A model generated the notes under the pieces. The model was not told the origin of the DNA. It saw nothing but the letters and a program-made list of their open reading frames with translations, and did no database searches. Shown here piece after piece: positions 1-44,530 of a stretch of DNA of 64,000 nt (positions within the stretch are counted from its first letter, which is position 1; every line of letters begins with the position of its first letter). Source of the stretch: a virus. The position numbers and the translations under genes are program-made. The stretch lies in IMG/VR virus record IMGVR_UViG_3300021365_000003, one strand, 5' to 3'.

Positions 1-5
1 AAAAA

Positions 6-302: not shown

Positions 303-303
303 A

Positions 304-669
304 ATGATTGAATACAAAGTAAAAGTATGGCCCAACGGAACCAAAGCGTGGTCGCTAAACGGAAAGCGTCACCGTGAAGATGGCCCGGCTATAGAGTGTT
401 CCGACGGAACCAAAGAATGGCGGCTAAACGGAGAGTATCACCGTGAAGATGGTCCGGCTATTGAGTGTGCCAGCGGAGACAAAATGTGGTTTCTTGAAGG
501 AAAGTTTCACCGTGAAGATGGCCCTGCTGTTGAACATGCCGACGGAGAAAAATGGTGGTTCCTAAACGACGAACGGCTTACCGAAAAAGAACACCGAGAT
601 CAAACTCAAGCTTGCACAAACAAAGTAATTGAGATCGACGGAAAGAAATACAAACTAGTCGAACTATAA
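304..669 (+). CDS. HREDGPA-repeat phage protein, 3 full repeats
   Basis: Same N- and C-termini as 6..302 plus one extra 69-bp repeat unit. Confidence 0.85.
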   Translation: MIEYKVKVWPNGTKAWSLNGKRHREDGPAIECSDGTKEWRLNGEYHREDGPAIECASGDKMWFLEGKFHREDGPAVEHADGEKWWFLNDERLTEKEHRDQTQACTNKVIEIDGKKYKLVEL

Positions 670-691
670 AATAAATTAAACACAAACAAAA

Positions 692-862
692 ATGAAAGTA
701 GCTGTATATATTGATGGTTTCGAATTCCAAACAAGATTCAATGACGTAGAAGAAGCAATGCTAGGTATTGCCGGACGTGAATCAACTTGGGCTTATGATA
801 ATAATGAATGGAATTGGATTAGCCCTGTTAGTGGAAAACGCTATACAGTAAAACAACTTTAG
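692..862 (+). CDS. small hypothetical protein (56 aa, MKVAVYIDGF...)
   Basis: ATG..TAG ORF read by hand; fills the gap before the tRNA; below the ORF-track cutoff. Confidence 0.6.
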   Translation: MKVAVYIDGFEFQTRFNDVEEAMLGIAGRESTWAYDNNEWNWISPVSGKRYTVKQL

Positions 863-877
863 TGAGAACTACTTAAA

Positions 878-951
878 GCACCCTTAGCTCAGCTGGATAG
901 AGCAATTGCCTTCTAAGCAATCGGTCGCACGTTCGAATCGTGCAGGGTGTA
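878..951 (+). tRNA. tRNA-Arg(TCT)
   Basis: Cloverleaf: GCACCCT/AGGGTGT acceptor, TAGCTCAGCTGGATAGAGC D arm, ATTGC-CTTCTAA-GCAAT anticodon arm, GTTCGAATC T loop; no encoded CCA. Confidence 0.97.
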
Positions 952-976
952 CTATAACGGCAAAGAGAACAAAACA

Positions 977-1123
977 ATGTCAAAGAACAAAAATAAAAAC
1001 AAAGCAAAACCTCGGAACCCTTATCACGAGGTTATGAGAACCCTGTTCAAACCAAAAACCATTCCAGATAAAACAAAACAGAATAACAAGAAAGCCTGTA
1101 GAGGAAAGGTAAGGGAAGACTAA
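977..1123 (+). CDS. small basic protein, possibly ArfA-like (48 aa)
   Basis: MSKNKNKNKAKPRNPYHEVMRTLFKPKTIPDKTKQNNKKACRGKVRED; RNP...LFKPKxIPDK...basic tail pattern. Confidence 0.45.
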   Translation: MSKNKNKNKAKPRNPYHEVMRTLFKPKTIPDKTKQNNKKACRGKVRED

Positions 1124-1333
1124 AACAAAACAAAGACGTTACGTTATATAAACGTTAACATATATATAAAACAAAATTAAACCCCTTATTGAAACAAATA
1201 AGGGGCCGAATAAACCGACTACGATAGGAGAGGCCCCCATCGATTTTGTTTTTAGGTTTTTCGGCCCCCGCCGGGACGCCGCCCCACCGGAGCGACGCTT
1301 GGCGATTTTGTTTTTTTATTTATACCGATCGGA

Positions 1334-1573
1334 TCAGAGTTCAGTCCAATGCGGCGAAGCGCCCTGCCATCTTGCTTGGCAACAATCGCACCAATCTTCG
1401 TAAACCAGAACCTCCCTATTCGACCGGTCCAGGCAGGCAACTTTCCACCAGCCAGCGGCAACATCCTCGCAGTCAGTCAGGGCCGTTTGTTCTAGTTTCA
1501 ATTGCGTCGCTTCAGACCGTCGGACAAGTTCTTGATCAAGTTCGTTCATTACTGCCGTGGTAAGGTCATACAT
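1334..1573 (-). CDS. hypothetical protein
   Basis: ORF co-oriented with 1634..2080; no clear RBS, and it lies past a terminator. Confidence 0.35.
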   Translation of the reverse strand: MYDLTTAVMNELDQELVRRSEATQLKLEQTALTDCEDVAAGWWKVACLDRSNREVLVYEDWCDCCQARWQGASPHWTEL

Positions 1574-1604
1574 AGCGAAGCTTCAAAAAATTTAGGGGAA
1601 AAGC

Positions 1605-1625
1605 AAAAAGGGGGCCGAAGCCCCC
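1605..1625 (-). terminator. intrinsic terminator (minus strand)
   Basis: Minus strand reads GGGGGC-TTCG-GCCCCC-TTTTT just after the stop of 1634..2080. Confidence 0.85.
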
Positions 1626-1633
1626 GAGCCGCC

Positions 1634-2080
1634 TTACTTGGCGACCGTCTCGCCGGAGAGGACCGAAGCGAATGCATCCTCGCTTGAGGTCAGGAAGAAG
1701 AACACCGGAGGCGCTCCTCGCTTGCCCGGTTCGCATTCCATCTTGCGAGCCGAGTCAATGAAGCCGCCAGCCTTGAGCTTGGCGAGGTGCTGTGCAACCG
1801 CATTGCGCTTGATGTTCGCACCACCTTCGAGCAGGACGTTATGAACGTCCGCACACGTTGGACCGTATTGATCCGGGTCGGTTGAGAAGCCGACAAAGCC
1901 CATGAGGACGCTTGCGACAGTCGATTGACGAACGGTGTCCGTCTCACGAGTGCGGCGAGCCTCGGCAGCAAGCGAAGCGGTGAGATCGTAAATCTCCTCA
2001 CGGCGGGATTCGATGCGAATGTCTCGCAGCGTGTATCCGAGTTGAGCCATTGCGATTGCCTTGAAGTTCTGATTAGCCAT
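1634..2080 (-). CDS. winged helix-turn-helix DNA-binding protein
   Basis: VHNVLLEGGANIKRNAVAQHLAKLKAGGFI...KRGAPPVFFFLT is a wHTH-plus-wing pattern; GAGG RBS; downstream of two copies of the repeated promoter. Confidence 0.7.
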   Translation of the reverse strand: MANQNFKAIAMAQLGYTLRDIRIESRREEIYDLTASLAAEARRTRETDTVRQSTVASVLMGFVGFSTDPDQYGPTCADVHNVLLEGGANIKRNAVAQHLAKLKAGGFIDSARKMECEPGKRGAPPVFFFLTSSEDAFASVLSGETVAK

Positions 2081-2124
2081 TGTTTACCTCGTGGGTAGAA
2101 AGAAAGGGCGGCTGAGCCCCGTTA

Positions 2125-2161
2125 CATTAGTTAGACGATTGAGCGCCGGATCTTATCCACA
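2125..2161 (-). promoter_or_regulatory. bipartite ECF-type promoter, copy 1
   Basis: Minus strand TGTGGATAAGATCC-ggcgctcaat-CGTCTAACTAATG. Confidence 0.8.
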
Positions 2162-2227
2162 TAAAGTGAAATAAAGTTCGATTCGGTTGACTTAGCGTCG
2201 CCGCTTTGTCTTCGCTCTCCCGTCTCT

Positions 2228-2264
2228 CATTAGTTAGACGATCGAAGGCCGGATCTTATCCACA
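2228..2264 (-). promoter_or_regulatory. bipartite ECF-type promoter, copy 2
   Basis: Minus strand TGTGGATAAGATCC-ggccttcgat-CGTCTAACTAATG; shares upstream TTTATTTCACTTTA with copy 1. Confidence 0.8.
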
Positions 2265-2355
2265 TAAAGTGAAATAAAATGATAAAAGATGAAAAACCCA
2301 ATGGTTACGGTAGGTTACAGGAATCGGCCCCCGCCGGGCGCTTTTATTGCTTTTA

Positions 2356-2392
2356 TGTGGATAAGATCCGCCCGTTGTTCGTCTAACTAATG
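2356..2392 (+). promoter_or_regulatory. bipartite ECF-type promoter, copy 3
   Basis: TGTGGATAAGATCC-gcccgttgtt-CGTCTAACTAATG. Confidence 0.8.
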
Positions 2393-2412
2393 AACCCAAC
2401 ATGTGAGGAACT

Positions 2413-2565
2413 ATGGCTACAGAAGACTACACGGGGGCGCTAACGAGCGCCATTCTAGAACTTGCTAAGATAATCGAACTCCTGCTAGCTGAGCGCCAGG
2501 CGCTTGTAGAGAAAATCGAATCCCTAGAGTGGCAAGCGGAACACTACGGCATGCCGCCGCTTTAA
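2413..2565 (+). CDS. small coiled-coil-like early protein (50 aa, MATEDYTGAL...)
   Basis: GAGGAA RBS directly after promoter copy 3; read by hand. Confidence 0.65.
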   Translation: MATEDYTGALTSAILELAKIIELLLAERQALVEKIESLEWQAEHYGMPPL

Positions 2566-2587
2566 ACCCAACACGAGAGGAAAGAAA

Positions 2588-2791
2588 ATGAAAAGAACCA
2601 AACGAACCATTGGATATGAACTCTATCAAGACGGTCAGCTGACTAAAAGCTTTCGAGGCAAGGGCGCTGAACGTCAATTAAAGATGCACATGCGGACGGT
2701 GACCGATTACGATCGGGTCATCCAGAAGGTTCGCCAGAAAGATGGATCGGTCAAGTGGAAATTCTATAAGACAGATCGCAACGTACTTTGA
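2588..2791 (+). CDS. small basic early hypothetical protein
   Basis: Preceded by the conserved leader AACCCAACACGAGAGGAAAG. Confidence 0.75.
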   Translation: MKRTKRTIGYELYQDGQLTKSFRGKGAERQLKMHMRTVTDYDRVIQKVRQKDGSVKWKFYKTDRNVL

Positions 2792-2797
2792 TCTTTA

Positions 2798-2834
2798 TGT
2801 GGATAAGATCCTCGTCTTATTCGTCTAACTAATG
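2798..2834 (+). promoter_or_regulatory. bipartite ECF-type promoter, copy 4
   Basis: TGTGGATAAGATCC-tcgtcttatt-CGTCTAACTAATG. Confidence 0.8.
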
Positions 2835-2855
2835 AACCCAACACAAAGGAAGAAA

Positions 2856-3047
2856 ATGCTACACACTATTCAAGAAGCCGCCCAATGGATCAACAACTGC
2901 GGCCAGCTTAAGCCCGGCTTGGTTGCCGATATCGAAGTGCTCGCCACCGATCAAGGCTTTGCCGAAGACGATGACGGGATCCGATCGGTGGCTTATCCTC
3001 TTTGGCGAGTCGAGGACTTTCAAGAGTTGCTTGGTTTGATTTCGTAA
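2856..3047 (+). CDS. small acidic early hypothetical protein
   Basis: Start moved to ATG 2856 after the AAGGAAG RBS; the ORF-track start at 2832 lies inside the promoter motif. Confidence 0.7.
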   Translation: MLHTIQEAAQWINNCGQLKPGLVADIEVLATDQGFAEDDDGIRSVAYPLWRVEDFQELLGLIS

Positions 3048-3061
3048 TAAATCAAACTTTA

Positions 3062-3098
3062 TGTGGATAAGATCCTCGTCTTATTCGTCTAACTAATG
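3062..3098 (+). promoter_or_regulatory. bipartite ECF-type promoter, copy 5
   Basis: Identical to copy 4. Confidence 0.8.
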
Positions 3099-3119
3099 AA
3101 CCCAACACGAGAGGAAAAA

Positions 3120-3185
3120 ATGATTGACCTACTTTTCGCAAGCTATCTCATTCTTGGCTTTGTCGGCGCCCTCGCAACCCTCTAA
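3120..3185 (+). CDS. 21-aa hydrophobic peptide MIDLLFASYLILGFVGALATL
   Basis: GAGAGGAA RBS in the conserved leader; single TM-like helix. Confidence 0.55.
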   Translation: MIDLLFASYLILGFVGALATL

Positions 3186-3199
3186 TCGGAGTATACTTT

Positions 3200-3442
3200 A
3201 TGAGCTGCACTTTTACTATTAATCGAGACGGAACCGTCCACGCTTGGCATTCACGAGCTAATACTGATATGCCATTCGGGCGGGTTAGTCTTACCGAGTT
3301 GCTTCAGGGCATGCGTGAATGGGAAGGCGGAAAGCTTATTCAGAACGCCATGCCTTTCCTTGACGCCGGCCGTCGGGAATTCATCATGACCGGAATGACT
3401 CCGGCAATGTGGGATGAATTGTTTCCAGAAAATTGTGGATAA
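3200..3442 (+). CDS. phage hypothetical protein
   Basis: GGAG RBS; GxLIQNAMPFLxAxxREFIMTGxTxxxWDELF pattern recalled from phage small proteins. Confidence 0.75.
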   Translation: MSCTFTINRDGTVHAWHSRANTDMPFGRVSLTELLQGMREWEGGKLIQNAMPFLDAGRREFIMTGMTPAMWDELFPENCG

Positions 3443-3470
3443 GATCCGTCGCCCGTACGTCTAACTAATG
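3434..3470 (+). promoter_or_regulatory. bipartite ECF-type promoter, copy 6
   Basis: TGTGGATAAGATCC-gtcgcccgta-CGTCTAACTAATG; overlaps the stop of the upstream ORF. Confidence 0.8.
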
Positions 3471-3488
3471 AACCCAAGGAGGAAGAAA

Positions 3489-3704
3489 ATGATTTATATT
3501 GTTGGAAATTTTAATGGCGCTTATGGCGCAGAGGGCGCAGTCGATATTGAAGGCGTATACGATTCAAGGGGAGCGGCCGAGCAAGCAATTGCTGAATTCA
3601 ATGAAGATCGAGTTTCAACACTTCGAGCGGCCGGAATCGAGACCGGCTCAATTGATTTCGAAATTCATGAGCTGCCCTTGAACATTTGGATCGGCGGCTT
3701 ATAA
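3489..3704 (+). CDS. small early hypothetical protein (MIYIVGNF...)
   Basis: AGGAGG RBS then ATG 3489. Confidence 0.75.
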   Translation: MIYIVGNFNGAYGAEGAVDIEGVYDSRGAAEQAIAEFNEDRVSTLRAAGIETGSIDFEIHELPLNIWIGGL

Positions 3705-3758
3705 TTAACAAGGCCGCCGATTCCGGTAGGCTAGCAAACCCAACACTAGAGGAAAGCA

Positions 3759-3848
3759 ATGGACGCAGAAAGTATCAAAGACGTTTTAGGTGGTATCGTT
3801 TTAGGTTGTATGTTGATCGTAGGATTGTGCTTGGCCTTTGTGCTTTGA
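3759..3848 (+). CDS. 29-aa membrane peptide MDAESIKDVLGGIVLGCMLIVGLCLAFVL
   Basis: Conserved leader AACCCAACACTAGAGGAAAG; one TM helix. Confidence 0.6.
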   Translation: MDAESIKDVLGGIVLGCMLIVGLCLAFVL

Positions 3849-4029
3849 CGATTTTGTTTTGTTGGGGTAGGGGTCCCCCCTCCCCTCCCCCGGAACCAGG
3901 TTGGCCCGTGGGAGAATGGCCTCCGGCCCGGCTAAGGACACTCGCATGACGCACAGAAAATTTTGAGATTTTAGACCCCCCTCCCCCTATAAGAAAAATA
4001 AGGCCCCCCAAAAAAATCCCGCTCCAAAA

Positions 4030-4081
4030 TTTTTGAGATTTTAAGACTATTTATAAGGCAAGAAACAATTTAAAAGGAAAA
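4030..4081 (+). repeat. about 52-bp promoter/RBS cassette, repeated at 4565..4616 and partly at 5597..5630
   Basis: AGATTTTAAGACTATTTATAAGGCAAGAAACA(A/T)TTTAAAAGGA in front of MK(I/L)TK genes. Confidence 0.9.
4046..4055 (+). promoter_or_regulatory. putative late promoter ACTATTTATA (core CTATTTA also at 4581, 5597, 8128, 9603, 10428, 11239, 17292, 22007, 44537, 47219, 56608)
   Basis: Recurrent CTATTTA(T) shortly upstream of structural and tagged genes, with no -35 element. Confidence 0.7.
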
Positions 4082-4085
4082 TTAA

Positions 4086-4538
4086 ATGAAAATCACAAAA
4101 CAGCATCTAACACATATCATTAAAGAAGAATTGGAAGCGATCATGCAGGAAGGCCAGTCCTTAAGCGATAAGATCGATAATCTTGTCAAGGATATCAAGG
4201 ACCCCGAAACCGGCGTCGATCTAGAGGAGCCTGACTTAATCAAAACGCCGAAATCGTTTCGGGGTCGGGGCACTCAGGTGTACTCAGGCGGTACCGGCGC
4301 CACCAAAGCTCCAAAAGCTTTTCTAAAATTGGGTTCAGAGAACGACACTAGAGCTGTATACAATTACCTCAAAGAAAGATCAGATAAAATAGAAAAAGGA
4401 ATCGTCGGAAAAAATCCGGACGTGAAAGCAACATTTTACATGCTTGGCAAAAATTTTCTTTTAAGAGACATAGATACAAAGAACTTTAGGGTATACTTTT
4501 CAACGGCCGGAATAATGAATAACGTTAGATATCTCTAG
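4086..4538 (+). CDS. MKITK..IIKEE-tagged protein, putative virion cargo
   Basis: N-terminus MKITKQHLTHIIKEELEAIMQE; late promoter upstream. Confidence 0.8.
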   Translation: MKITKQHLTHIIKEELEAIMQEGQSLSDKIDNLVKDIKDPETGVDLEEPDLIKTPKSFRGRGTQVYSGGTGATKAPKAFLKLGSENDTRAVYNYLKERSDKIEKGIVGKNPDVKATFYMLGKNFLLRDIDTKNFRVYFSTAGIMNNVRYL

Positions 4539-4621
4539 TAGAACAGCCAATCCCCCATAGCATTTTTTTCAGATTTTAAGACTATTTATAAGGCAAGAAA
4601 CATTTTAAAAGGAAAAAAACA

Positions 4622-5017
4622 ATGAAGCTCACAAAAGAATACCTAACACAAATCATTAAAGAAGAGATAGAGAAGACGTATAAACACCCACTAGCCCGAG
4701 GAGTTCAGGTTGTTAAAACCGGCGAGACCGTCCGTCCAGAAGATCCAGATGATCCTCATGATGAAATGGCCGGCTATAAAGATACAACCTACGATATTCT
4801 AGATCAACAAGGAAACAAGATCGGCTTCCTAGAGCACGAAAACTACTTTGGCAACCTTGACGGCGAGTTGTACGATAGGTATCTTCCTAGATTGCAGGGA
4901 TATCGCTCTCACGGATCCGGACCATTAGGAAAATTACAATCTTTTTTCAAGTCTAAAACTGGAAGAAAGTGGCTTGATGTAAGCCAGAGAAGGATGCAAA
5001 AGAAAAAAAGTCAATGA
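4622..5017 (+). CDS. MKLTK..IIKEE-tagged protein, putative virion cargo
   Basis: N-terminus MKLTKEYLTQIIKEEIE; late promoter upstream. Confidence 0.8.
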   Translation: MKLTKEYLTQIIKEEIEKTYKHPLARGVQVVKTGETVRPEDPDDPHDEMAGYKDTTYDILDQQGNKIGFLEHENYFGNLDGELYDRYLPRLQGYRSHGSGPLGKLQSFFKSKTGRKWLDVSQRRMQKKKSQ

Positions 5018-5568
5018 AGCTCACAAAACAGTATCTTAGAACCTTAGTTGAAACGGTTTTGGTCGAAGCTTCAGAGGAACGCATTCCTTCCGAAGGGGGC
5101 ACAACGCAATTATACCACTTTACTCAAGAATCACCCGAGAACGCAAAGGAAAAGATATTGCTTGACCCAAAATTATTCGGAAAAATGGGTTATTCAAAAA
5201 AAGATTTGGCGATTTCGGCGGTTCCTCGCACGTTTTTCTATGTGAATCCAGCAGAGAAAGAAAGTTTTTTTGCTAACAAGGCGCTTTATACAGCAAACGT
5301 TCCCACGGCCGACATTTATAACCTTGCCGATGACCCGGAGGGGGTGAAAGCGGCAGTCCGAAAAGAAAACTATAACATTCTTGACATGGATCAGGTGCTA
5401 AAAAAGGTTTCCGGATGGCAACAAGGCGCTTGGGGCACCGAAAACCAAGGAAAATGGATAAAAAATCCTGGTATGGCCGATGGAATGTACTATGAAACAC
5501 CAAGTTTTGCTGTTGTGGTAATGTTCCGGCCCGTTGAGGCTTTTCTTTCCGACGAACAAACCTCTTAA
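5014..5568 (+). CDS. tagged protein with possible ADP-ribosyltransferase fold
   Basis: Tag MKLTKQYLRTLVETVLVE; LYHFT...FFY...LY...DGMYY...VVMFRP spacing resembles H-Y-type ART domains. Confidence 0.5.
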   Translation: MKLTKQYLRTLVETVLVEASEERIPSEGGTTQLYHFTQESPENAKEKILLDPKLFGKMGYSKKDLAISAVPRTFFYVNPAEKESFFANKALYTANVPTADIYNLADDPEGVKAAVRKENYNILDMDQVLKKVSGWQQGAWGTENQGKWIKNPGMADGMYYETPSFAVVVMFRPVEAFLSDEQTS

Positions 5569-5637
5569 ACATCAAAAAATTTATAAAAAATTCGAAACTA
5601 TTTATAAGGCAAGAAACATTTTAAAGGAGAAACAAAA

Positions 5638-6144
5638 ATGAAAATCACAAAACAGTACCTCGTTAAAGTCATCAAAGAGGAGCTTGAGGGGACACTCGAA
5701 GAAGACGAGAAACAAGGCGCCGCAATGATTTTAAAAGCATTAAATAAAGAGATCGCAGAAAGACCAGAACTGCAAAAAGACGTTAAAGCAATTGCAGAGG
5801 CGATATCGCTTAATGAAAACTCACCTCGATCGTACGCCTGGCACGACGCCCTGGAGACCGATCCTGAACGACTCGGCAAGGCAGGTGCGATCTTAGGAGG
5901 GGGTATCGGGGCCATGACAGGTACCGGTACGGCGGTGGCGGCCACCGTTGCAACCGCCATAGCTAGCCTCTCTAGCCCGCAAATAGCTGATATGATCCGG
6001 ATGCTTACCGATCGTGGGCTCATGACGTTTGGGCCGGCCGGGACTTTAGCAATCATGGGTACCGCAGCTGTGGTAATCCCTGCGATCATAGGCGCTATTA
6101 AAGGTTATAAGAAGGGAAAATCGATCGGGGTACCTAACTCCTAG
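5638..6144 (+). CDS. tagged protein with Gly/Ala-rich hydrophobic helices
   Basis: Tag MKITKQYLVKVIKEELE; GxxxG-rich GAILGGGIGAMTG and a C-terminal TM-like segment. Confidence 0.75.
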   Translation: MKITKQYLVKVIKEELEGTLEEDEKQGAAMILKALNKEIAERPELQKDVKAIAEAISLNENSPRSYAWHDALETDPERLGKAGAILGGGIGAMTGTGTAVAATVATAIASLSSPQIADMIRMLTDRGLMTFGPAGTLAIMGTAAVVIPAIIGAIKGYKKGKSIGVPNS

Positions 6145-6202
6145 AGCATGCCCCCTAGCATGTCAAACTATCGATAAAAACACCACTAAAAAGGAGAAAT
6201 TA

Positions 6203-7783
6203 ATGAAAAACTATAAAACAACCGTTATCGCTGCTTGCTTGGTTGGCATGATGGGCGCTTGTGCTGCGGATGGAAGTGTCTCGTATGAAGGCACAACAAA
6301 CGAACCTCGACCCTGCTGTGAGCCTGACGACAACCCACCGATCGACACCCAACCTGACGATCGGCCTCCAATTGCTTATCCCCCGGCGGACCCAATTGAC
6401 CCTCCTGTCGAGCCCCCTGTCGAGCCCCCTGCCGATCCTTTCGTGGAAGCAGAAGACCTTAGCGCCGACGAGCTTCAACGGGTCGAGATTCTCCGAGACT
6501 CTATCAATATTGGTTTGAATTTGGGCACAGAGCTTTACTTGGACCAAATGGCCATTCAATTGCAAAACCTCAACATTGCAATGGACTATAACCTTTCTCA
6601 TGAAGATTTGTTTGCCGGATTGGATGCATCAATAACGGATTGCCCTTTTGTGGAGTTTTACGATAATGTTGAACAAGCAAATTCGGTTTCCTGCGATTAT
6701 CTTGCGGACATGGCGAAAGTGGAAGTTTATTCTAGTTTAACACAAGAATTGGACGCTGCGCCGCTAACAAGTGCAATCGCCGGCTCTATTCATTTTGAGG
6801 AGGCCCAGTTTTGGTATGAGCAAGGAGCAATTAGCGCCTTGGAAGACAACCGTGTTCGGGTTCGCTTCGACCTAATGAACCGAGGCTTTTGTAGTATTGA
6901 GCCCACACCGGTGGAAAGCTCTTATATAAAAGGCATTGCGATCGGCCGGCAACACTTTGCGCAAACTTTTAATTTGGAATTAGAGCGACGAGGATTTGCT
7001 CCTTCTTATCCTGAAATGCCAATTATCGAGATCTGCGATGCTAATGAAGCTTTTATCGAACCGGCAATGAGCAACGCCCTTGGCAGCCTTGGAATGGCCA
7101 TGGAAGCCGAGCCTCTTTGTGCTTCTGACTATACCCCACCAAATGCCGAAGCTTCATTGCAGTGGGCGCAAGCTCAAATCGATTATGAGCGAGGCGTTCG
7201 TCAAGGTTTAGAAGATGAAATGGCCCTTGCGGCTGTTGCGGCGTTTCGGGTTATTCCTTGTAATGTTGGTGACCCGTTGGTGATTGACTTGGATGGCGAC
7301 GGTATTGAATTAAGCTCAATTAATGATGGAGTTAACTTTGACTTATACAACATTGGCCGAGAACAAGCAATGGCATGGCCTAATGGTGGCGACGGCTTTT
7401 TGGCTTATGATTGGAATGGTGATGGTGTTATAACTTCCGGCGCTGAACTTTTTGGAAACGTTCAAGGCGATTGGACCGACGGATTTGACCATCTTGCTTC
7501 TTTTGATTTAGACATGGACAACCTTATAACAAAAAATGATAAAATTTTTTCCGGGTTGGTTGTTTGGCAAGATATCAATCAAGATGGGCTTTGCGCCGCC
7601 AATGAGCTTTCACCCTTGGCCAACTTTGGTGTTTCTGCTGTCCCAACAATTGGTTCCGGCGGGCACGACGCTGTAAATGGAAACCCAATCCCGCTTGTTG
7701 CTTGGACCGAAGGTGAAGTGCTGCTTATTGGTGATGCCGAGCTTTCAATTGCCCCAAACCCCAGGCTTGCTCGCTTGGATTAA
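6203..7783 (+). CDS. putative lipoprotein with C-terminal FrpC-type self-processing module (SPM)
   Basis: Signal peptide ending GMMGAC, Pro-rich linker, then GD|PLVIDLDGDGIEL...DGFLAYDWNGDGVITSGAELFG...LVVWQDINQDG...EL. Confidence 0.8.
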   Translation: MKNYKTTVIAACLVGMMGACAADGSVSYEGTTNEPRPCCEPDDNPPIDTQPDDRPPIAYPPADPIDPPVEPPVEPPADPFVEAEDLSADELQRVEILRDSINIGLNLGTELYLDQMAIQLQNLNIAMDYNLSHEDLFAGLDASITDCPFVEFYDNVEQANSVSCDYLADMAKVEVYSSLTQELDAAPLTSAIAGSIHFEEAQFWYEQGAISALEDNRVRVRFDLMNRGFCSIEPTPVESSYIKGIAIGRQHFAQTFNLELERRGFAPSYPEMPIIEICDANEAFIEPAMSNALGSLGMAMEAEPLCASDYTPPNAEASLQWAQAQIDYERGVRQGLEDEMALAAVAAFRVIPCNVGDPLVIDLDGDGIELSSINDGVNFDLYNIGREQAMAWPNGGDGFLAYDWNGDGVITSGAELFGNVQGDWTDGFDHLASFDLDMDNLITKNDKIFSGLVVWQDINQDGLCAANELSPLANFGVSAVPTIGSGGHDAVNGNPIPLVAWTEGEVLLIGDAELSIAPNPRLARLD

Positions 7784-7804
7784 AATTAACTAAAGGAGAT
7801 TATA

Positions 7805-8065
7805 ATGAAAATCACAAAACAAAAACTTGTCAAGATCATCAAAGAAGAGCTTGAGGCTGCTCTTGATGAGTCAAAGAGCCCAATGCCCCTTGAAGATCTT
7901 ACTGATGCAGAGTGGGAATTTTGGAAAAGCGCTTTCGAAGAAGCCGAAGCTGCCGGTGCTGATGTCGATGAGGCATCCGCTCACGCAAATAAAGAAGTTG
8001 ATGCGCTAAGAAATGCGGAAACTTCCGAAGCCCTCCCGGCAAACGATGACGGCATAGACTTCTAA
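7805..8065 (+). CDS. small acidic tagged protein
   Basis: Tag MKITKQKLVKIIKEELEAALDE; AAGGAG RBS. Confidence 0.8.
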   Translation: MKITKQKLVKIIKEELEAALDESKSPMPLEDLTDAEWEFWKSAFEEAEAAGADVDEASAHANKEVDALRNAETSEALPANDDGIDF

Positions 8066-8087
8066 GAAAAATAAATCTTGCGAATCC

Positions 8088-8117
8088 AAGCCCCGCTTTT
8101 TCGGCGGGGCTTTTTTT
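8088..8117 (+). terminator. intrinsic terminator
   Basis: AAGCCCCGC-TTTTTCG-GCGGGGC followed by T7. Confidence 0.9.
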
Positions 8118-8168
8118 GTTTTGACTAACTATTTATAACAAAACATAACTTATAAGGAGTTTTTTAAA

Positions 8169-9320
8169 GTGAAAATCAAGAAAACTAGGCTGCTGCAAAT
8201 CATCCAAGAGGAGATTGCACGCATTGATGAAGATAAAGCGGAGAGCATGGAAGCACTTGCTGCCAAAGCCAAGGAAAACCCAAATAGTCCGGCGATGGAA
8301 GAGCTTTTAACCAGACTTTCAAAAAAGCATCGTTTTCTTGCGCTTAAGTTAGCCGGCGGAAACGAAGCTGACGCCGAGGACGCAATGCAAAGCGCCCTTA
8401 TCAAAATCATGACTCAAATTGGTGGGTTCCGAGGAGATTCTGCATTCTCCACTTGGGCCGGCGCCATTATGAAAAATGAATTAATTGACAGTTTCCGAGC
8501 AGGACGCAAAGAGCTTCCTTTTGCCGGTGGCGGCGCAGCTGAAGGCGAGCCGGATATCACAAGTATGTCCGACAAGAGCGAAATCTATCCGTTGGTTCCA
8601 AAAATTAAGAACCCCGAGCAGATTCTTCTTGACAAAGAGCGCAATGAAGCTTTCGATGCTATGGTCCAAGCAATCAAGGATGACAAAATCAACCTCAACG
8701 ATCGGCAAAAAATTGTTACCCTAAATCAGTTTGCGGCCGATCCAAAGTCAGTCGAGGAACTGCGTGTCGAGCTTGGTTACAACACTGTCGGAGAAGTTGG
8801 TCGTGAAATTTCTCGGTCACGTGAAAGAATTGATCGATGGTTGTACTCTCCAGGTGATGAAGGCGTCAAGAAAACTCTTCGAATCGCATTTGCTGGTGGT
8901 GTGAAGCCCGGCGATATCCGAGAAGGCGAAACAGCCGATCGTATGTTTGATGATGCCGAAGCTATCAGAGCAGATGAAAAGCAGTTCTTTGAAGACTTTT
9001 ATAAATGGGCTTATGATAATTATGGCTCAATGGTCGAGGACGGTGAGCTTGACGATGAGCTTTTAGCTGTTTACCGAAAAGTTTTAGCTAAGTCAGAAGA
9101 TCCTGATGCCGACCTTATGGAGCCCGGAATCGACTTGGACTATGAATCACTTCCAAAGGCAGGATCAATGGCTGGTTCATCGACGAATCCGACTCCCCCA
9201 ACAGCAAGACGTCGAGGATCTATGTTTCCTCGACGACCAGATGAAAGATATCGCAAAAATGAAGAACTTTCTTTAGAAGAAACAATTGCTGCAGTCGTAA
9301 AAGAGACTTTGGGTCTATAA
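8169..9320 (+). CDS. ECF (RpoE-like) RNA polymerase sigma factor with N-terminal cargo tag and acidic C-terminal extension
   Basis: Sigma2: DAEDAMQSALIK...FRGDSAFSTW...N..ID.FR; sigma4-like LNDRQKIV...SVEELRVELG..VGEVGREISRSRERI; GTG start with AAGGAG RBS. Confidence 0.88.
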   Translation: MKIKKTRLLQIIQEEIARIDEDKAESMEALAAKAKENPNSPAMEELLTRLSKKHRFLALKLAGGNEADAEDAMQSALIKIMTQIGGFRGDSAFSTWAGAIMKNELIDSFRAGRKELPFAGGGAAEGEPDITSMSDKSEIYPLVPKIKNPEQILLDKERNEAFDAMVQAIKDDKINLNDRQKIVTLNQFAADPKSVEELRVELGYNTVGEVGREISRSRERIDRWLYSPGDEGVKKTLRIAFAGGVKPGDIREGETADRMFDDAEAIRADEKQFFEDFYKWAYDNYGSMVEDGELDDELLAVYRKVLAKSEDPDADLMEPGIDLDYESLPKAGSMAGSSTNPTPPTARRRGSMFPRRPDERYRKNEELSLEETIAAVVKETLGL

Positions 9321-9345
9321 ACAACTTTAAAGTTATGTTATAATG

Positions 9346-9376
9346 AAAGGGCGGGTTCTTCCCGCCCTTTTCTTTT
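9346..9376 (+). terminator. intrinsic terminator
   Basis: AAAGGGCGGG-TTCTT-CCCGCCCTTT followed by TCTTTT. Confidence 0.85.
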
Positions 9377-9385
9377 ATCTAAATT

Positions 9386-9571
9386 ATGAAAAAACCTTTA
9401 ATTTGCAAAGTTATTGTTTGGCGAATTTTTTCTACCACAGTGGCCGGTACAGTTTCTTGGATTTGGATTGGCGAACTTAAAAAATCTTTAACGCTTACAA
9501 TCTTTTTAACTTTCTTGATGATGTTTTTACATTATTTATTTGAAAGAGTTTGGGAAAGCTTAAATAAATAA
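9386..9571 (+). CDS. small membrane protein (DUF2061-like)
   Basis: KxIxWRIxST...ERVW pattern with two hydrophobic segments. Confidence 0.6.
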   Translation: MKKPLICKVIVWRIFSTTVAGTVSWIWIGELKKSLTLTIFLTFLMMFLHYLFERVWESLNK

Positions 9572-9613
9572 AAATATTTGTGGTTATTTTCACTTGCGGT
9601 TTCTATTTATTTT

Positions 9614-10402
9614 ATGCGGCGAATGATTTTTATTGCGATTTTTTGTTTTTCTTTGTTTGATTGTAAAGGAAATAATCTCTCTCAAACGTCTTCTGCCGCC
9701 TCCGAAGTTTTTGTCCCGGCCCTTGCCTATGTTCAACTCTCCAAAGCGCTTACAATGCGTTTTGAGGGCAATGAAATACCTTATGGTTGGTGGTCTGCCG
9801 GCGGTGTTTGCATCAAAAGCGACGAAGATGGCTGTTTTATCTTAACTGTTGATCATTTTTGCCATTCTGACCCCGAAGATTTGTTTGGGCCGGAGCCAGA
9901 GCACATTGATTATAACGTTAATTTTAATTATTCTTTTTCTGGTGAGAACTTGGTTGGCGATTTCGGTGATGGCTGGGTGGTTGCGCAAAATCCGGATGTT
10001 GATTTATGCTTGATTTGGCTTCAAGGCGACTTTGATCATGAAATTAATGCTATAGCTGATGAAGGAAACATAAAATTTTTTGCTGAGCTTCATAATTGGG
10101 GCGCACCAAGAGGATTTTTCCGCACATTTCCTTCTTTTGGGCTGCTTTTGTTTGAAGGATACTGGGGAGGTTGGTGTGACGACTTTTGTCAGCTTCCAAA
10201 TAACTTAGATGGAAACAACTTTTTCATGCATTCTATTCCCACATCTTCTGGCCAGTCCGGATCTGCCATCTTTTTAGGTGATAAACTGTTTGGATTGCAA
10301 GTTGCTTCAAATTCTTCTGTTGATAGTTTTGGAATTTCAGCTCGTCCGTCTATTATAAATAATTTTCTAAGGGCAAATAACATTGTCAAGCCTTATTTAT
10401 AA
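9614..10402 (+). CDS. secreted trypsin-like serine protease
   Basis: ILTVDHFC (His), VDLCLI (Asp), GQSGSAIF (Ser); hydrophobic N-terminus; start codon uncertain. Confidence 0.75.
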   Translation: MRRMIFIAIFCFSLFDCKGNNLSQTSSAASEVFVPALAYVQLSKALTMRFEGNEIPYGWWSAGGVCIKSDEDGCFILTVDHFCHSDPEDLFGPEPEHIDYNVNFNYSFSGENLVGDFGDGWVVAQNPDVDLCLIWLQGDFDHEINAIADEGNIKFFAELHNWGAPRGFFRTFPSFGLLLFEGYWGGWCDDFCQLPNNLDGNNFFMHSIPTSSGQSGSAIFLGDKLFGLQVASNSSVDSFGISARPSIINNFLRANNIVKPYL

Positions 10403-10477
10403 CAAAATACTTTAAAACCTTTACTTAACTATTTATTGTAGTGGTGATTTTTACCACAATTGTAAAGGAGTATCATT

Positions 10478-10591
10478 ATGTCAGCATTTATGTGGGGCGT
10501 CGTTTGTGGCGCCGTTGCTTCACCTTTCGTTTGGGAAAGCTTGAAGTGGTGTTACCGTAAATATCTCAGCGTTCTAAAGAAAGCAGAGTAA
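10478..10591 (+). CDS. 37-aa membrane peptide
   Basis: Late promoter, AAGGAG RBS, MSAFMWGVVCGAVASPFVW... with a basic tail. Confidence 0.6.
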   Translation: MSAFMWGVVCGAVASPFVWESLKWCYRKYLSVLKKAE

Positions 10592-10597
10592 ATTTAC

Positions 10598-10617
10598 TGC
10601 CCCCGCTCAAGGGGGCA
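10598..10617. terminator. hairpin between convergent genes
   Basis: TGCCCCC-GCTCAA-GGGGGCA. Confidence 0.6.
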
Positions 10618-10638
10618 CATCATAAATCTTTCTATAAT

Positions 10639-11280
10639 TTACTTTACGTAGCTATCGTAATACCAGCGCCTGTTCCCACGTTCGGAAAGAAGGCCAAGAT
10701 GGATAGAATAGCCGCCTAAACCTAAAGACATTCCTAGTTCTAGATCGTCATAAAGGGCTTCCAGCAGCGCTTCAACGTGCCGGCGATCGTCTTGTGTCTT
10801 GAAATCCATGTCAAAAGCATAAGCACCAATGTGATCGGAAGCTTTTGCTCCACCAACTTTTTCATTATAGTCTTCTGGGCGCCACCAATTTCTTACAACA
10901 ATTGGCTTTCCTAAATCTTCCCTGAGATAGTCGAAGAGGGACGCAAGCGCAGCACCCCTGTCCCACCATTCGTGTTCCGGAACAAACGCTTCATAGCCCA
11001 ACTCAGAAGCAGTATCAAGGTGGTGAGGTGTGCACATCTCCTTGGCGGAAACAAAAACAATACCTGTGGCGTCTAGATAAGATTGATACCCAGCCATAGT
11101 TAGTTCATAGTCCTGTGGATCGACAACTGCCTTGTTAAATCGATCTACAATTCTTTCAAAAGGGTTCATTTCTTTAAATCTATCAGTCTTGGGCATTTCA
11201 TCGGTCTCCTCTTCTGCTGGCGCATTTGGGTTGCGCAAACTATTTAAAGCAGTTCTTAGAATGTTATATAGGGTTTTCAT
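10639..11280 (-). CDS. peptidase M15-family Zn peptidoglycan hydrolase (endolysin candidate)
   Basis: WRPEDYNEKVGGAKASDH...AFDMD...IHLG; probable start MKTLYN after minus-strand CTATTTA at 11301..11307. Confidence 0.8.
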   Translation of the reverse strand: MKTLYNILRTALNSLRNPNAPAEEETDEMPKTDRFKEMNPFERIVDRFNKAVVDPQDYELTMAGYQSYLDATGIVFVSAKEMCTPHHLDTASELGYEAFVPEHEWWDRGAALASLFDYLREDLGKPIVVRNWWRPEDYNEKVGGAKASDHIGAYAFDMDFKTQDDRRHVEALLEALYDDLELGMSLGLGGYSIHLGLLSERGNRRWYYDSYVK

Positions 11281-11308
11281 ATTATTGGAATGTGTTGTGG
11301 TAAATAGA

Positions 11309-11422
11309 ATGATTAAAGAAAAAATAAAGAACAATTTAGTTGTTCAAAACACTTTGGTTGCAATTGCTTTTTTGTGGCTTGTGGTATTTACCATAATCCT
11401 TATGGCTAGCAAGAACAAATAA
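11309..11422 (+). CDS. small single-TM peptide
   Basis: MIKEKIKNNLVVQNTLVAIAFLWLVVFTIILMASKNK. Confidence 0.45.
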   Translation: MIKEKIKNNLVVQNTLVAIAFLWLVVFTIILMASKNK

Positions 11423-11443
11423 TTAATAAAGGAGAATAAAATA

Positions 11444-12022
11444 ATGTTTTTAATTAAATTACTTTACTTTTTTTGGAACTTTATACCGAACTTTGGTAAG
11501 TGGTGGTATGGGCTCACAATGAAGGTTACAAAAAATAACGAGTTTCCTGTTGAGAAAGTTTCTACGTATAGTGAAGTTGGTGAAAGATTAGAGTGGGGCA
11601 AGCGGTACCGAAAAGATAAATGGGAAGGAAAACTCGATAATCTTTCTCACCCAACTGAAATTCAAAAAAGAATCGCTAATGGTGAACTAATTGGTGACTG
11701 TGATGATCATAGCATTTATTGGGCTACTTGTCTACTAAAATCTGACCTAGTTTTAAAAGTTTGGTTTTCTTTCTTTCAAATGCGATCAAAAGATACTGGA
11801 AAATTAAGTGGGCACGTTGTTTGTGTTTTTGTCGACAAGGAAAATAAAATGAAGTGGTGCGATTATCGTATGCCTTCCGATATTGAGTCTCGTTGGAGCT
11901 GGGCAGAGCAAAGTGCGGAAAGGTATAATGCCGAAGTACTAACAGCGGCAATGGTAGAAGTAATCTCAATCAAGCCAGATGATACGCCCGTTTTTGGGGA
12001 AGTTGATAAAAAGATCTGGTAA
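11444..12022 (+). CDS. transglutaminase-like cysteine protease-fold protein
   Basis: GDCDDHS (Cys)...GHVVCVF (His)...WCDY (Asp); AAGGAG RBS. Confidence 0.7.
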   Translation: MFLIKLLYFFWNFIPNFGKWWYGLTMKVTKNNEFPVEKVSTYSEVGERLEWGKRYRKDKWEGKLDNLSHPTEIQKRIANGELIGDCDDHSIYWATCLLKSDLVLKVWFSFFQMRSKDTGKLSGHVVCVFVDKENKMKWCDYRMPSDIESRWSWAEQSAERYNAEVLTAAMVEVISIKPDDTPVFGEVDKKIW

Positions 12023-12043
12023 GGACACCGACGGACCAAATGC

Positions 12044-12073
12044 TTGACTTTGGGCCTCGTTTCGTGTTATAAT
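12044..12073 (+). promoter_or_regulatory. host sigma70-type promoter
   Basis: TTGACT-N18-TATAAT with extended TG. Confidence 0.7.
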
Positions 12074-12141
12074 AGACGACTGGCCTCGATCGTTTGCGGG
12101 GCCGGAACCGGTAAATTTATCGGAAAAAAAACGTTCGAAAA

Positions 12142-12171
12142 GTGGATAAGATCCGTCGCTCGTTCGTCTAA
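12142..12171 (+). promoter_or_regulatory. bipartite ECF-type promoter, copy 7
   Basis: GTGGATAAGATCC-gtcgctcgtt-CGTCTAA ending 40 nt upstream of the uvsE start. Confidence 0.8.
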
Positions 12172-12211
12172 TATATACACCGGGCTTTCCGGACCAACTC
12201 ACAGGAGGATT

Positions 12212-13141
12212 ATGAATAGCGACTATATCGGTTACGCTTGTATCAACATGGGTTTTAGTGAACGACCTAAGAGTCAACGCATCACTACTAACAGAACAAT
12301 GATTAAAAAAACTTTTGATGCGAAGGGTATCCACTATGCCTCTCAACTAACTCTACTAAATATAACAGACCTACTTGAGATTGTCAAGTGGAATGAGCAA
12401 AACAATGTAAAGTTTTTTCGAATGAGTTCTAATATGTTTCCTTGGGCATCTCATTACAACATTGATGATATGCCGGACATCAAGGAGATCTCTAAGAAGC
12501 TAAAAGAAGTTGGTGACTTTGCTAAAAAGCACAACCATAGACTTACATACCACCCTGGACCTTTCAACAAGTTGGCCTCACCTAAAGAACGTGTAGTCCA
12601 AAACACTATTACTGATTTGGAGATTCACGGCAAGGTTATGGATTTGATGGGCCTCCCAAGAGATCACTGGGCTAAGATCAACATTCACGTTGGTGCTGCT
12701 TATGGAGACAAGCCAAGCGCACTAAAAACGTTTTGTGAGAATGTAAACAAACTTTCTCCAGCAGTTAGATCAAGACTAACGGTGGAAAATGATGACAAGG
12801 TTTCTCTTTACTCAACAAAAGAACTTTACGAAGGAGTTCACGAACAAACTGGGATCCCTATTGTTTTTGATTACCACCATCACAAGCTTTGTACGGGAGG
12901 CCAGTCTGAACAAGATGCGTTAGAACTAGCTTTGTCGACCTGGGGAGATATCACCCCTGTAGTACATTACTCAGAGTCAGCTAGAGAAGAACAGAACAAT
13001 ATTAAGATTAGAGAAGAGAAACACTCTAACTATATATATAATACTATTAATAACTATAATAATAATATACATGTTATGGTAGAAGCTAAGGCTAAAGAAC
13101 TAGCAGTTATTAAATACAAAACGGAGATTATCAATGGTTAA
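12212..13141 (+). CDS. uvsE: UV damage endonuclease
   Basis: GYACIN, FFRMSS, HPG, NIHVG, LTVENDD, VFDYHHH, VHYSES, EAKAKE; start at ATG 12212 after AGGAGG. Confidence 0.95.
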   Translation: MNSDYIGYACINMGFSERPKSQRITTNRTMIKKTFDAKGIHYASQLTLLNITDLLEIVKWNEQNNVKFFRMSSNMFPWASHYNIDDMPDIKEISKKLKEVGDFAKKHNHRLTYHPGPFNKLASPKERVVQNTITDLEIHGKVMDLMGLPRDHWAKINIHVGAAYGDKPSALKTFCENVNKLSPAVRSRLTVENDDKVSLYSTKELYEGVHEQTGIPIVFDYHHHKLCTGGQSEQDALELALSTWGDITPVVHYSESAREEQNNIKIREEKHSNYIYNTINNYNNNIHVMVEAKAKELAVIKYKTEIING

Positions 13142-43525: not shown

Positions 43526-43911
43526 TGATTTATGGTATTATAACAGTTTCGGTATTACTTAATGTAATTCTAACTTGGTATGGCCGCCGCCTTGTAACCG
43601 ACCTTTCAGACCTTTCATTAGAAGTCGAGGAAGTGATTACAGACCTCAACATTTATCATCGCCACGTCGAACAAGTATACCAGCTTGAATCCTTTTATGG
43701 AGATGAAACCTTACGTGCCTTGTTAGAGCACTCAAAGGCCGTCTCAGAGAGAGTTGGAGACTTTACAACCCTGTTTAGCAGGTTAGAGGAAGAAGAGCTT
43801 ACAGATGCCCTAGAGGAGCAAATAGATGACAGTGAAGAAGAGAAGGAAGAGCAAGTATCCAAAGAAAAAAAACATGTATTTTACGCAGGTACACGAGGAC
43901 GCAATCCTTGA
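43522..43911 (+). CDS. membrane-anchored hypothetical protein
   Basis: N-terminal TM segment; coiled-coil/acidic body. Confidence 0.7.
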   Translation: MMIYGIITVSVLLNVILTWYGRRLVTDLSDLSLEVEEVITDLNIYHRHVEQVYQLESFYGDETLRALLEHSKAVSERVGDFTTLFSRLEEEELTDALEEQIDDSEEEKEEQVSKEKKHVFYAGTRGRNP

Positions 43912-44530
43912 ATACTGTAAATCAGAATCAAAAGCTAGAAGAGAAGAGCTATACGGCACACTAATCCAACCTGCTTTTGACGAGTTAGTTGATAAGATTG
44001 TTTATACCTATAAGTTTAACTCACTTCCAAATTGCGATATTCTAAAAGAAGATTGTAAAGTCTTTTTGGTTACAATCTTAGAAAAGTTTGATGTTGAAAA
44101 GGGTTATAAAGCCTTTACTTACTTTTCAGTGATCACAAAGAACTGGTTTATTGCCGAGACCAAGAAAAGAAAAAAGAAGCTTCAAAAAGAAGTTGCCTTG
44201 GATGTTTCTGATACAATGATGGATGAAAAGCTTATCGTTCGAAACACTTACATCCAAGATCGCACAAAAGCAGAGTTCATTGAGGTGCTCCACGAAGAAA
44301 TAGTATGGTGGAAGGAAGAAACATCCAGCGCTCAAGATAGAAAAATCTTAGAAGCAGTCGAAGTTTTATTTGAGTCAGTAGAGCAGATTGACATTTTTAA
44401 CAAAAAAGCTGTGTATGTTTACCTGCGGGAGATTACCGGCTTTAGCACAAAGCAAATAACTTCTTCTCTAACAAAAGTAAGAAAAAAATATCGAAATCTA
44501 AGAGCCGAGTGGGACAACGGAGAAATCTAA
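43826..44530 (+). CDS. phage late sigma factor (gp55-like)
   Basis: YFT...KFDVEKGYKAFTYFSVITKN region-2 pattern; positioned just before structural genes. Confidence 0.7.
   Translation: MTVKKRRKSKYPKKKNMYFTQVHEDAILEYCKSESKARREELYGTLIQPAFDELVDKIVYTYKFNSLPNCDILKEDCKVFLVTILEKFDVEKGYKAFTYFSVITKNWFIAETKKRKKKLQKEVALDVSDTMMDEKLIVRNTYIQDRTKAEFIEVLHEEIVWWKEETSSAQDRKILEAVEVLFESVEQIDIFNKKAVYVYLREITGFSTKQITSSLTKVRKKYRNLRAEWDNGEI

Follow-up and report, generated by a model that had tools for sequence, protein, structure and literature searches.

A candidate capsid-delivered, RpoE-like sigma factor encoded behind a virion-gene promoter motif in a T4-like marine phage

A gene for a sigma factor lies at positions 8169-9320 of the stretch of DNA analysed here (64,000 nucleotides (nt), hereafter the window), which corresponds to bases 24474-88473, on the minus strand, in the IMG/VR virus record IMGVR_UViG_3300021365_000003. 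The record is 168,882 bp long and is estimated to be 93% complete. The virus is an uncultured T4-like phage, and its genome encodes a prohead protease of the gp21 type (Peptidase_S77, 98.6 bits), together with a Gp23-family capsid protein, a tail sheath, a tail tube and baseplate wedge proteins. It stands far from any cultured phage: the tail sheath is less than 40% identical to its best cultured-phage match, and a tblastn search with the sigma factor and its leader returned no match among 50,697 phage records. The sequencing runs that contain the window sequence, among them X1-X12, are marine. A search for an RNA polymerase beta' subunit, for which the control worked, found none in the genome; therefore, transcription of the phage must rely on the core enzyme of the host. 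The features considered in this study are collected in Table 1.

Table 1. Features of the sigma gene, of the leader-tagged genes and of the promoter classes (window coordinates unless stated otherwise; aa, amino acids; ECF, extracytoplasmic function; ORF, open reading frame; AF2, AlphaFold2; pLDDT, predicted local distance difference test)
Feature	Position	Strand	Basis or remark
ECF-type promoter GGATAAGATCC-N10-CGTCTAA	2131..2158	-	motif search
ECF-type promoter	2234..2261	-	motif search
ECF-type promoter, cited in the preliminary description	2359..2386	+	motif search
ECF-type promoter	2801..2828	+	motif search
ECF-type promoter	3065..3092	+	motif search
ECF-type promoter	3437..3464	+	motif search
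Leader-tagged cargo gene, 150 aa, behind ACTATTTATA	4086..4538	+	leader pattern, motif
Leader-tagged cargo gene, 131 aa, behind ACTATTTATA	4622..5017	+	leader pattern, motif
Leader-tagged cargo gene, 184 aa, with a short overlap with the gene before it; leader more divergent	5014..5568	+	
Leader-tagged cargo gene, 168 aa, behind ACTATTTATA	5638..6144	+	leader pattern, motif
Leader-tagged cargo gene, 86 aa, cargo part strain-variable	7805..8065	+	leader pattern, strain comparison
Intrinsic terminator 5' of the sigma unit, ending the preceding tagged gene (7805-8065)	8088..8112	+	10-pair stem, 7 GC, T tract
ACTATTTATA, virion-gene (putative gp55-type late) promoter motif	8128..8137	+	40 nt before the start codon
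Shine-Dalgarno sequence AAGGAG	8154..8159	+	9 nt before GTG; conserved in relatives
Sigma factor ORF, GTG start, 383 aa	8169..9320	+	Pfam, phmmer, Foldseek
Leader, residues 1-21 (MKIKKTRLLQIIQEEIARIDE), with I-x-E sites IQE-14 and IDE-21	8169..8231	+	conservation, paralogues
Sigma region 2, residues 56-113, with FRGDSAFSTW loop	8334..8507	+	Pfam, RpoE/AlgU alignment
Sigma region 4, divergent helix-turn-helix, residues 149-232	8613..8864	+	phmmer alignment; AF2 pLDDT ~82
Acidic C-terminal extension, residues 233-360, mostly disordered (predicted)	8865..9248	+	net charge -9; pLDDT <50
Conserved C-terminal helix (...ELSLEETIAAVVKETLGL), L-E-E site	9249..9317	+	allele comparison
Intrinsic terminator 3' of the sigma gene	9345..9371	+	11-pair stem, 7 GC; strongest in 1-13000
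ECF-type promoter in front of the gene for the UV endonuclease UvdE	12144..12171	+	motif search
gp55-like late sigma candidate, weak	43826..44530	+	phrog_234, E 7e-5 and 5e-4; no Pfam match
Leader-tagged 75-aa protein (outside the window)	G000 grc 1303-1530 (L013:17353-17580:-)		directly upstream of the prohead protease

The product of the gene is a two-domain ECF (group 4) factor of the sigma-70 family and is RpoE-like. Pfam finds Sigma70_r2 (PF04542) in region 2 with an E value of 9e-11 (41.8 bits against a cut-off of 24), and no other protein of the genome matches this family. When the protein is compared by phmmer with the sequences of the PDB, residues 50-226 match nearly all of AlgU (8z6g, 6in7) and of E. 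coli RpoE (1or7, 6jbq), which are its closest solved relatives; 7qh5 is also among the matches. The alignment pairs the loop 'gfrgdsafstw' with 'FRGDSAFYTW', and FRGDSAF-TW is identical to RpoE and AlgU. In RpoE, this FRGDSAF loop of region 2.3 reads the -10 element of the promoter. Residues 150-226 correspond to region 4, in which the helix 'vgevgreisrsreridr' is paired with 'VGTVRSRIFRAREAIDN' and ends in RSRERID as against RAREAID. Pfam makes no region-4 call on the phage protein, and this region is therefore fairly called divergent. A linker of 35 low-confidence residues (114-148) joins the two domains, and there is neither a region 1.1 nor a region 3. An AF2 model built on 19 homologues has a pLDDT of about 75 in region 2 and the somewhat higher value listed in Table 1 in region 4. 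The top matches of this model in Foldseek are ECF sigma factors, the first being sigmaE in an initiation complex (6jbq_F), with alignments of about 200 columns that cover full-length ECF sigmas at 23-25% identity. Region 2 by itself superposes on region 2 of sigmaE at 1.7-3.0 Å. The possibility that the protein is a homologue of T4 gp55 was also considered and rejected, since the ORF has no similarity to T4 gp55; a separate gene encodes the weak gp55-like candidate.

Behind region 4, the protein continues into an acidic extension of about 150 residues, of which 128 make up the disordered part, and terminates in the helix SLEETIAAVVKETLGL. This end helix is 87-100% identical between alleles with cores that are only 10-33% identical, and the end pattern SLE.xI..V...L is kept in the clades of the family for which C-termini were read. 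An alternative role of the helix as a sliding-clamp-binding tail in the style of T4 gp55, gp33 and gp43 was rejected, because neither the gp55-like protein nor any of the large replication proteins has a C-terminal motif in common with it. The last residues of the sigma factor, ...TLGL (9303-9317), loosely resemble the ends of three proteins of the head module (G000 grc 1672-5000), namely the protease (...LVGL), a protein of 130 aa (...AFGL) and a scaffold-like protein of 357 aa (...AGIL). This likeness may be a hint of a common C-terminal end that binds the core or the shell, but it concerns only a handful of residues.

Region 2 is preceded by a leader, modelled as a helix, in which K2, I3, K5, L8, I11, I12, E14, E15 and E21 are invariant among 19 homologues whose cores are 30-45% identical. 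The pattern MK[ILT][TK]K..L..[IV][IV].E opens six ORFs of the window, namely those that start at 4086, 4622, 5014, 5638, 7805 and 8169; in its fuller form, MK[ILT][TK]K..L..[IV][IV].E[ET][LI], it is followed by a second hydrophobic-x-E, and the leaders of the paralogues end in I-K-E or (L/M)-x-E. Two ORFs outside the window open with the same leader, which brings the total to eight proteins, the sigma factor and seven others. One of these two has about 187 aa and lies near a putative portal gene, so assigned from its position and size only. The other is the 75-aa gene of Table 1, which occupies the slot of the T4 core proteins gp67 and gp68, and its promoter and 5' untranslated region (UTR) are nearly letter-for-letter those of the tagged cluster. 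Thus, the five tagged neighbours with unrelated cargo that a preliminary description of this DNA had reported are indeed present in the window, and the set is larger by two. The cargo parts have no BLAST similarity to one another, and a search of PHROGs with the cargo proteins returned only a weak leader-level match, to phrog_7338 (function unknown). Moreover, the leaders of the paralogues differ by synonymous changes (CTT/CTA/CTC/CTG, ATT/ATC/ATA, GAA/GAG) and the amino-acid pattern is kept; therefore, selection has acted on the peptide. Many more tagged proteins occur in relatives. In one of them, an AAA_33 (P-loop kinase-like) protein stands behind the leader and the late motif (L035:1206-1931), and the set of cargoes therefore includes enzymes. 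Stretches that resemble the leader were also seen inside two other proteins: T4 gp67 contains IDLIKEEKIA, and a 916-aa protein of the window (15390-18140), which has a cytidylyltransferase/NMNAT-like segment, contains the helices LRKAIRKIITE and LRKAIRGILTE.

The sigma gene appears to form an insulated single-gene unit, in which a terminator, the motif ACTATTTATA, a Shine-Dalgarno sequence, the gene and a second terminator follow one another. The upstream terminator is the second strongest in positions 1-13000 and is conserved at the nucleotide level in relatives, and ACTATTTATA is kept at every sigma locus of the relatives for which upstream sequence is present, except L024. The gene starts with GTG at 23 of 26 related sigma loci (window 8169 and L015-L040), with ATG only at L019, L020, L021 and L024. 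All seven other tagged genes of the genome start with ATG, and several tagged cargo genes in relatives also start with GTG; the GTG of the sigma gene may reflect selection for a low copy number. A sigma70 promoter was considered for the sigma gene and rejected: none was called before the gene, the region shows no enrichment of sites of this kind, and a TTGACT hexamer present there is not conserved. No anti-sigma domain was found among the neighbouring genes, which encode the leader-tagged 86-aa protein upstream and a DUF2061 membrane protein and a Trypsin_2-type peptidase downstream. The DUF2061 gene (9386-9571) begins 15 nt past the sigma terminator and is followed by the peptidase gene (9578-10402), whose product has a hydrophobic N-terminus; the spacing is too tight for a separate promoter, and these genes could therefore be reached only by read-through from the sigma unit. 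Further away, about 28 kb from the leader-tagged genes, the one gene of a sugar island that was scanned encodes a C-methyltransferase. The description of the gene that had been given from the letters alone is confirmed in every element, including the ECF core with a loop identical to that of RpoE, the divergent region 4, the acidic tail that ends in a helix, the late motif upstream and the lack of an adjacent anti-sigma gene.

Two words dominate the intergenic DNA of this genome, and they are associated with different sets of genes. The first is ACTATTTA, the most enriched intergenic 8-mer, with 26 coding-strand copies, of which 21 are intergenic. As ACTATTTA(TA), it is placed 19-50 nt before start codons, and it precedes the genes for the 75-aa core protein, the protease, the scaffold-like/capsid operon, the sheath, the tube, the giant virion proteins and PhoH, as well as the tagged genes at 4086, 4622, 5638 and 8169. 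The gp55-like product is the presumed reader of this word. Its gene ends a 22-kb run of co-oriented genes that starts at the ACTATTTA copy before PhoH (22007). The second word is the ECF-type promoter. GGATAAG-N16-TCTAA, which the preliminary description had put forward as the promoter motif, is present in seven copies in the window, against 0.05 expected, and in 19 copies in the genome. These 19 promoters have the form GGATAAGATCC-N10-CGTCTAA, with about 17 invariant positions in an element of about 28-30 bp and no degenerate copies; none was found at up to three mismatches near the sigma gene or the gp55-like gene. Their architecture is that of RpoE promoters, with GTC in the -10 element. 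All 19 fall in one half of the genome, the one with a DNA methylase, an AAA ATPase, a 1147-aa gene taken by its size alone as a DNA polymerase, UvdE, arrays of repeat-protein (MORN-like) genes and many small genes, and several are arranged as divergent pairs. Metatranscriptome contigs cover the genes of both classes and show neither starts nor ends of transcripts, and therefore no timing can be drawn from them; stretches that they leave uncovered carry no weight as evidence. The other viral contigs on which the ECF-type promoter was found are fragments, 9-33% complete, apart from one match in a provirus that is due to chance; the absence of the sigma gene from such fragments therefore says nothing.

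The exposure of the sigma cores to the prohead protease was examined through the motif that such enzymes recognise. In proteases of the T4 type, the cut follows the Glu of (L/I)-x-E (PMC5694885). The internal head proteins of T4 all enter the core by means of a capsid targeting sequence, and those found in T-even phages form a varied set with only this sequence in common (PMC5694885, PMC3012670). One of them, Alt, loses both of its ends by cuts at ITE-6 and LTE-619, is injected, and acts on the RNA polymerase of the host to favour early transcription of the phage (PMC5694885, PMC3012670). T4 IPII and IPIII start with MKTYQEFIAE, the sole [LI]-x-E of IPI is ITE-19, and in all three of these internal proteins the only site is the known cut. 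We counted [LI]-x-E in 18 alleles of the sigma core and derived the expectation from shuffles: 20 sites were present against 47.6 expected (ratio 0.42), whereas the ratio for [LI]-x-D was 1.79. In the eight alleles of the RpoE-like class, there were 2 sites against 20.7 expected. As controls, 92 cellular ECF sigmas gave ratios of 1.06 for [LI]-x-E and 1.03 for [LI]-x-D, the rest of the phage proteome gave 1.19-1.25, and the head module, whose proteins are supposed to be cut, gave 1.64. The non-sigma cargoes of relatives had a ratio of 0.56. The sigma alleles are related to one another, and this depletion therefore supports, and does not prove, an avoidance of the protease motif. By analogy, the layout of the sigma factor, with candidate sites in the leader and in the tail, would match the two-end trimming of Alt.

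The relatives provide a further view of the gene. The same layout of the sigma gene is found in 23 homologues of similar length, at 25 metagenome loci and on one viral contig, and at the DNA level these hardly differ in the upstream terminator, ACTATTTATA, the Shine-Dalgarno sequence, the GTG and the leader, even where the protein cores are 30-45% identical. A search of every cluster representative yielded seven close relatives of the core, followed by ordinary ECF sigmas; all seven have the leader and the tail, as a direct reading of both termini showed for P0017, P0027 and P0028. Between the constant ends, the core (window 8232-9070) is an allelic cassette. Most flanking 60-nt bins of the locus L026 match the window at 93-100% identity, but from just past the leader to about residue 300 the two are unalignable (10-52%). 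Between the window and L025 or P0018, the identity is 100% in the leader and 87-100% in the tail but 24-33% in region 2 and 10-20% in region 4. P0003 is a natural hybrid, with a region 2 that is 90% identical to that of the window and a region 4 that is 79% identical to that of P0018. In the comparisons of the window with L025, L026, L027, P0003 and P0018, the cassette has its breakpoints where the leader ends and close to residue 300. In one study, moreover, marine DNA and RNA libraries gave contigs that break at the junction of leader and core (8232) and continue into the other class of alleles. Contigs in the DNA and RNA libraries of runs X18-X20 diverge elsewhere, at 8162, 7 nt before the GTG, into a sequence that begins with AAAAGATAGATTATT. 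This continuation was not found in the window, the related loci or the viral contigs, and these contigs may represent a strain with a different sequence behind the sigma promoter and UTR.

In all sigma-allele backgrounds, the ECF-type promoters stay the same and in many cases agree letter for letter. Co-variation of region 4 with the -35 motif, which had been suggested as a check of the proposed circuit, is therefore not seen: regions 2 and 4 fall to 10-33% identity and the promoters stay unchanged. Two readings of this result can be given, either that a single DNA specificity is kept while the other surfaces of the protein diversify or that another factor reads the promoters. The hybrid sigma, which looks viable, favours the former. 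It is possible, and we suggest it only tentatively, that the phage lineage delivers the sigma in its capsid and that this sigma is a fast-swapping cassette that is selected at its interface with the host, and not for its DNA specificity, and that it acts as a determinant of host range or of counter-defence. In this cassette reading, whole cores and single regions 2 or 4 are swapped while the promoters remain fixed, and selection would therefore be directed at the host interface, that is, at variants of the core RNA polymerase, host anti-sigma factors or defence sensors.

We propose that the sigma factor is a cargo of a system that targets proteins to the head core, and that it is transcribed from the virion-gene motif and translated from a weak GTG. 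The leader of 21 residues, and perhaps also the C-terminal helix, would tether the sigma factor to the prohead core, where the gp21-type protease would trim it after Glu. A few copies would leave the capsid together with the DNA, and the trimmed sigma would bind the host core RNA polymerase in the next cell and open the 19 GGATAAGATCC-N10-CGTCTAA promoters. The data show what fold and family the protein has, the family of leaders, the promoter classes with their positions, the protease gene and the avoidance of its motif; the timing, packaging, cleavage and injection of the sigma factor, as well as which sigma reads the promoters, are inferred from sequence. As a whole, the chain from a late-made, leader-targeted sigma to its packaging, trimming, injection and action on ECF-type promoters is in our judgement a serious possibility that falls a little short of being probable. 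The sigma factor is the only one that fits the promoters of the DNA-metabolism half of the genome, and the circuit first proposed in the preliminary description remains the most coherent account of the data. The RpoE-like sigma, the virion-gene motif, the protease, the leader and the 19 promoters of that account have all stood, and the expected co-variation has not.

Several observations weigh against this proposal. In addition to the lack of co-variation between sigma and promoters, ACTATTTA is labelled 'late' only on account of the virion genes that it goes with, and the gp55-like candidate, itself a weak match (E 7e-5), has a gene with no recognised promoter nearby (window 43522-44530). The depletion of [LI]-x-E is strong only in the RpoE-like class, the other alleles having 18 sites against 27 expected; the non-sigma cargoes of the phage itself are not depleted (9 against 8.1, ratio 1.11), and neither is T4 Alt. 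Furthermore, AF2 models only the two domains with confidence, and the mean pLDDT is 58.

These observations leave room for readings in which the sigma factor acts in the cell where it is made. It might be a conventional intracellular sigma of a middle gene, with a leader that serves translation initiation, assembly or tethering and with no injection. Its transcript would then begin at an unrecognised start site, or ACTATTTA would not be specific to late genes, and the sigma would turn on the ECF-type promoters of the same cell in the manner of phiEco32 gp36 or SPO1 gp28. The TTGACT hexamer just before the late motif is what such a gene could use, the promoter catalogue is incomplete, as is seen at the gp55-like gene, and the metatranscriptome contigs are silent on timing. 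However, the hexamer is TTGGCT or TTGGAT in relatives and its matching -10 is poor (CATAAC/CGCAAC), sigma-70-like sites are neither called upstream nor enriched, and the strong upstream terminator blocks read-through. Because the leader is kept as a peptide and is present on a protein of the head module, and because the avoidance of the protease motif would be left unexplained, we consider a middle-gene sigma unlikely. Alternatively, the sigma could be made late and act late in the same cell, where it would re-activate the ECF-type regulon (methylase, repair, nucleotide and small genes) in a feed-forward manner during packaging, and the leader and tail would hold it on proheads or regulate it. 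The late-type promoter upstream of the gene suits this reading, and the methylase and the repair enzyme of the regulon could serve at the time of packaging. Moreover, ECF sigmas with C-terminal extensions are often self-regulated, as in the ECF41/42-type sigmas, and 7qh5 is among the matches of the phage protein. Yet the regulon also contains the 1147-aa gene (a polymerase by size only), divergent hubs and small genes and resembles an early region, and no other class of promoter was found that would start the ECF-type genes. Late action in the same cell thus seems improbable to us.

The promoters could also be read by a sigma of the host of the RpoE/AlgU type, with the phage protein, whether packaged or not, as a competitor, a decoy or a host-directed factor. 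The constancy of the promoters while the phage allele changes completely is what this reading would predict, and the architecture of the promoters is RpoE-like overall. However, their -35 element is GGATAAG. RpoE promoters have GGAAC, with the conserved AC of the ECF -35 box, which is lost here, and the residues of the recognition helix of region 4 in the phage sigma differ from RpoE in step with the -35 element. About 17 invariant positions over 19 copies are more typical of a dedicated phage factor, and the phage would depend on the stress response of its host. We therefore regard a host reader as improbable, and return to the injected phage sigma as the reading that we prefer.

If the injected sigma is real, it has consequences beyond this phage. 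Three ways to start an infection are known in phages: the use of the host sigma70, an injected enzyme that modifies the host RNA polymerase (T4 Alt) and the injection of a whole RNA polymerase (N4, phiKZ). To inject a sigma factor would add a fourth way, at a much lower cost. We found no description of an injected sigma factor in the literature searched, nor do we otherwise know of one. The cargo of T4-type targeting, so far known as small inhibitors and a single enzyme, would come to include a factor for transcription initiation. In addition, the swapping of alleles between fixed ends is a natural experiment that marks the parts of an ECF sigma that can change at a constant choice of promoters, and a promoter of 30 bp with a sigma of about 200 residues could make an orthogonal expression pair. 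The depletion of [LI]-x-E, the parallel with the two-end trimming of Alt and the swapping of alleles with fixed promoters are new here.

The proposed system can be compared with several known ones. The phage protein resembles RpoE and AlgU (ECF02-type) in its order of region 2, linker and region 4, in the FRGDSAF-TW loop and in the RxRExID end of the region-4 helix, and the promoters share the form GGA...-N16-(C)GTCTAA. It differs from them in an N-terminal addition of 45 residues, of which the leader is part, and a C-terminal acidic extension of 150 residues with its conserved end helix, in the lack of a nearby gene for an anti-sigma of the RseA/MucA type, in a -35 element of GGATAAG instead of GGAACTT, and in being encoded by a phage behind a virion-gene promoter. 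With IPI, IPII, IPIII and Alt of T4, it has in common a Peptidase_S77 protease, a short MK... leader with I-x-E on unrelated proteins, and a variable gene cluster with constant leaders. However, the leader has 15-21 residues in this phage and 6-19 in T4, the putative cargo is a sigma factor and not an enzyme or a restriction inhibitor, and the early promoters of T4 are read by the host sigma70. Like T4 gp55, phiEco32 gp36 and SPO1 gp28, the protein is a phage sigma that is predicted to redirect the core RNA polymerase of the host. These three sigmas are expressed from earlier classes of promoters, and to our knowledge none of them carries a capsid-type leader. The virion RNA polymerases, namely the virion RNA polymerase (vRNAP) of N4 and the multisubunit enzymes of phiKZ, SPN3US and AR9, are made late, carried in the capsid, and start early transcription (PMC4496689, PMC5449584, PMC5694885). 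The sigma factor described here would follow the same logic, but it would supply the specificity subunit only, with the catalytic core being that of the host.

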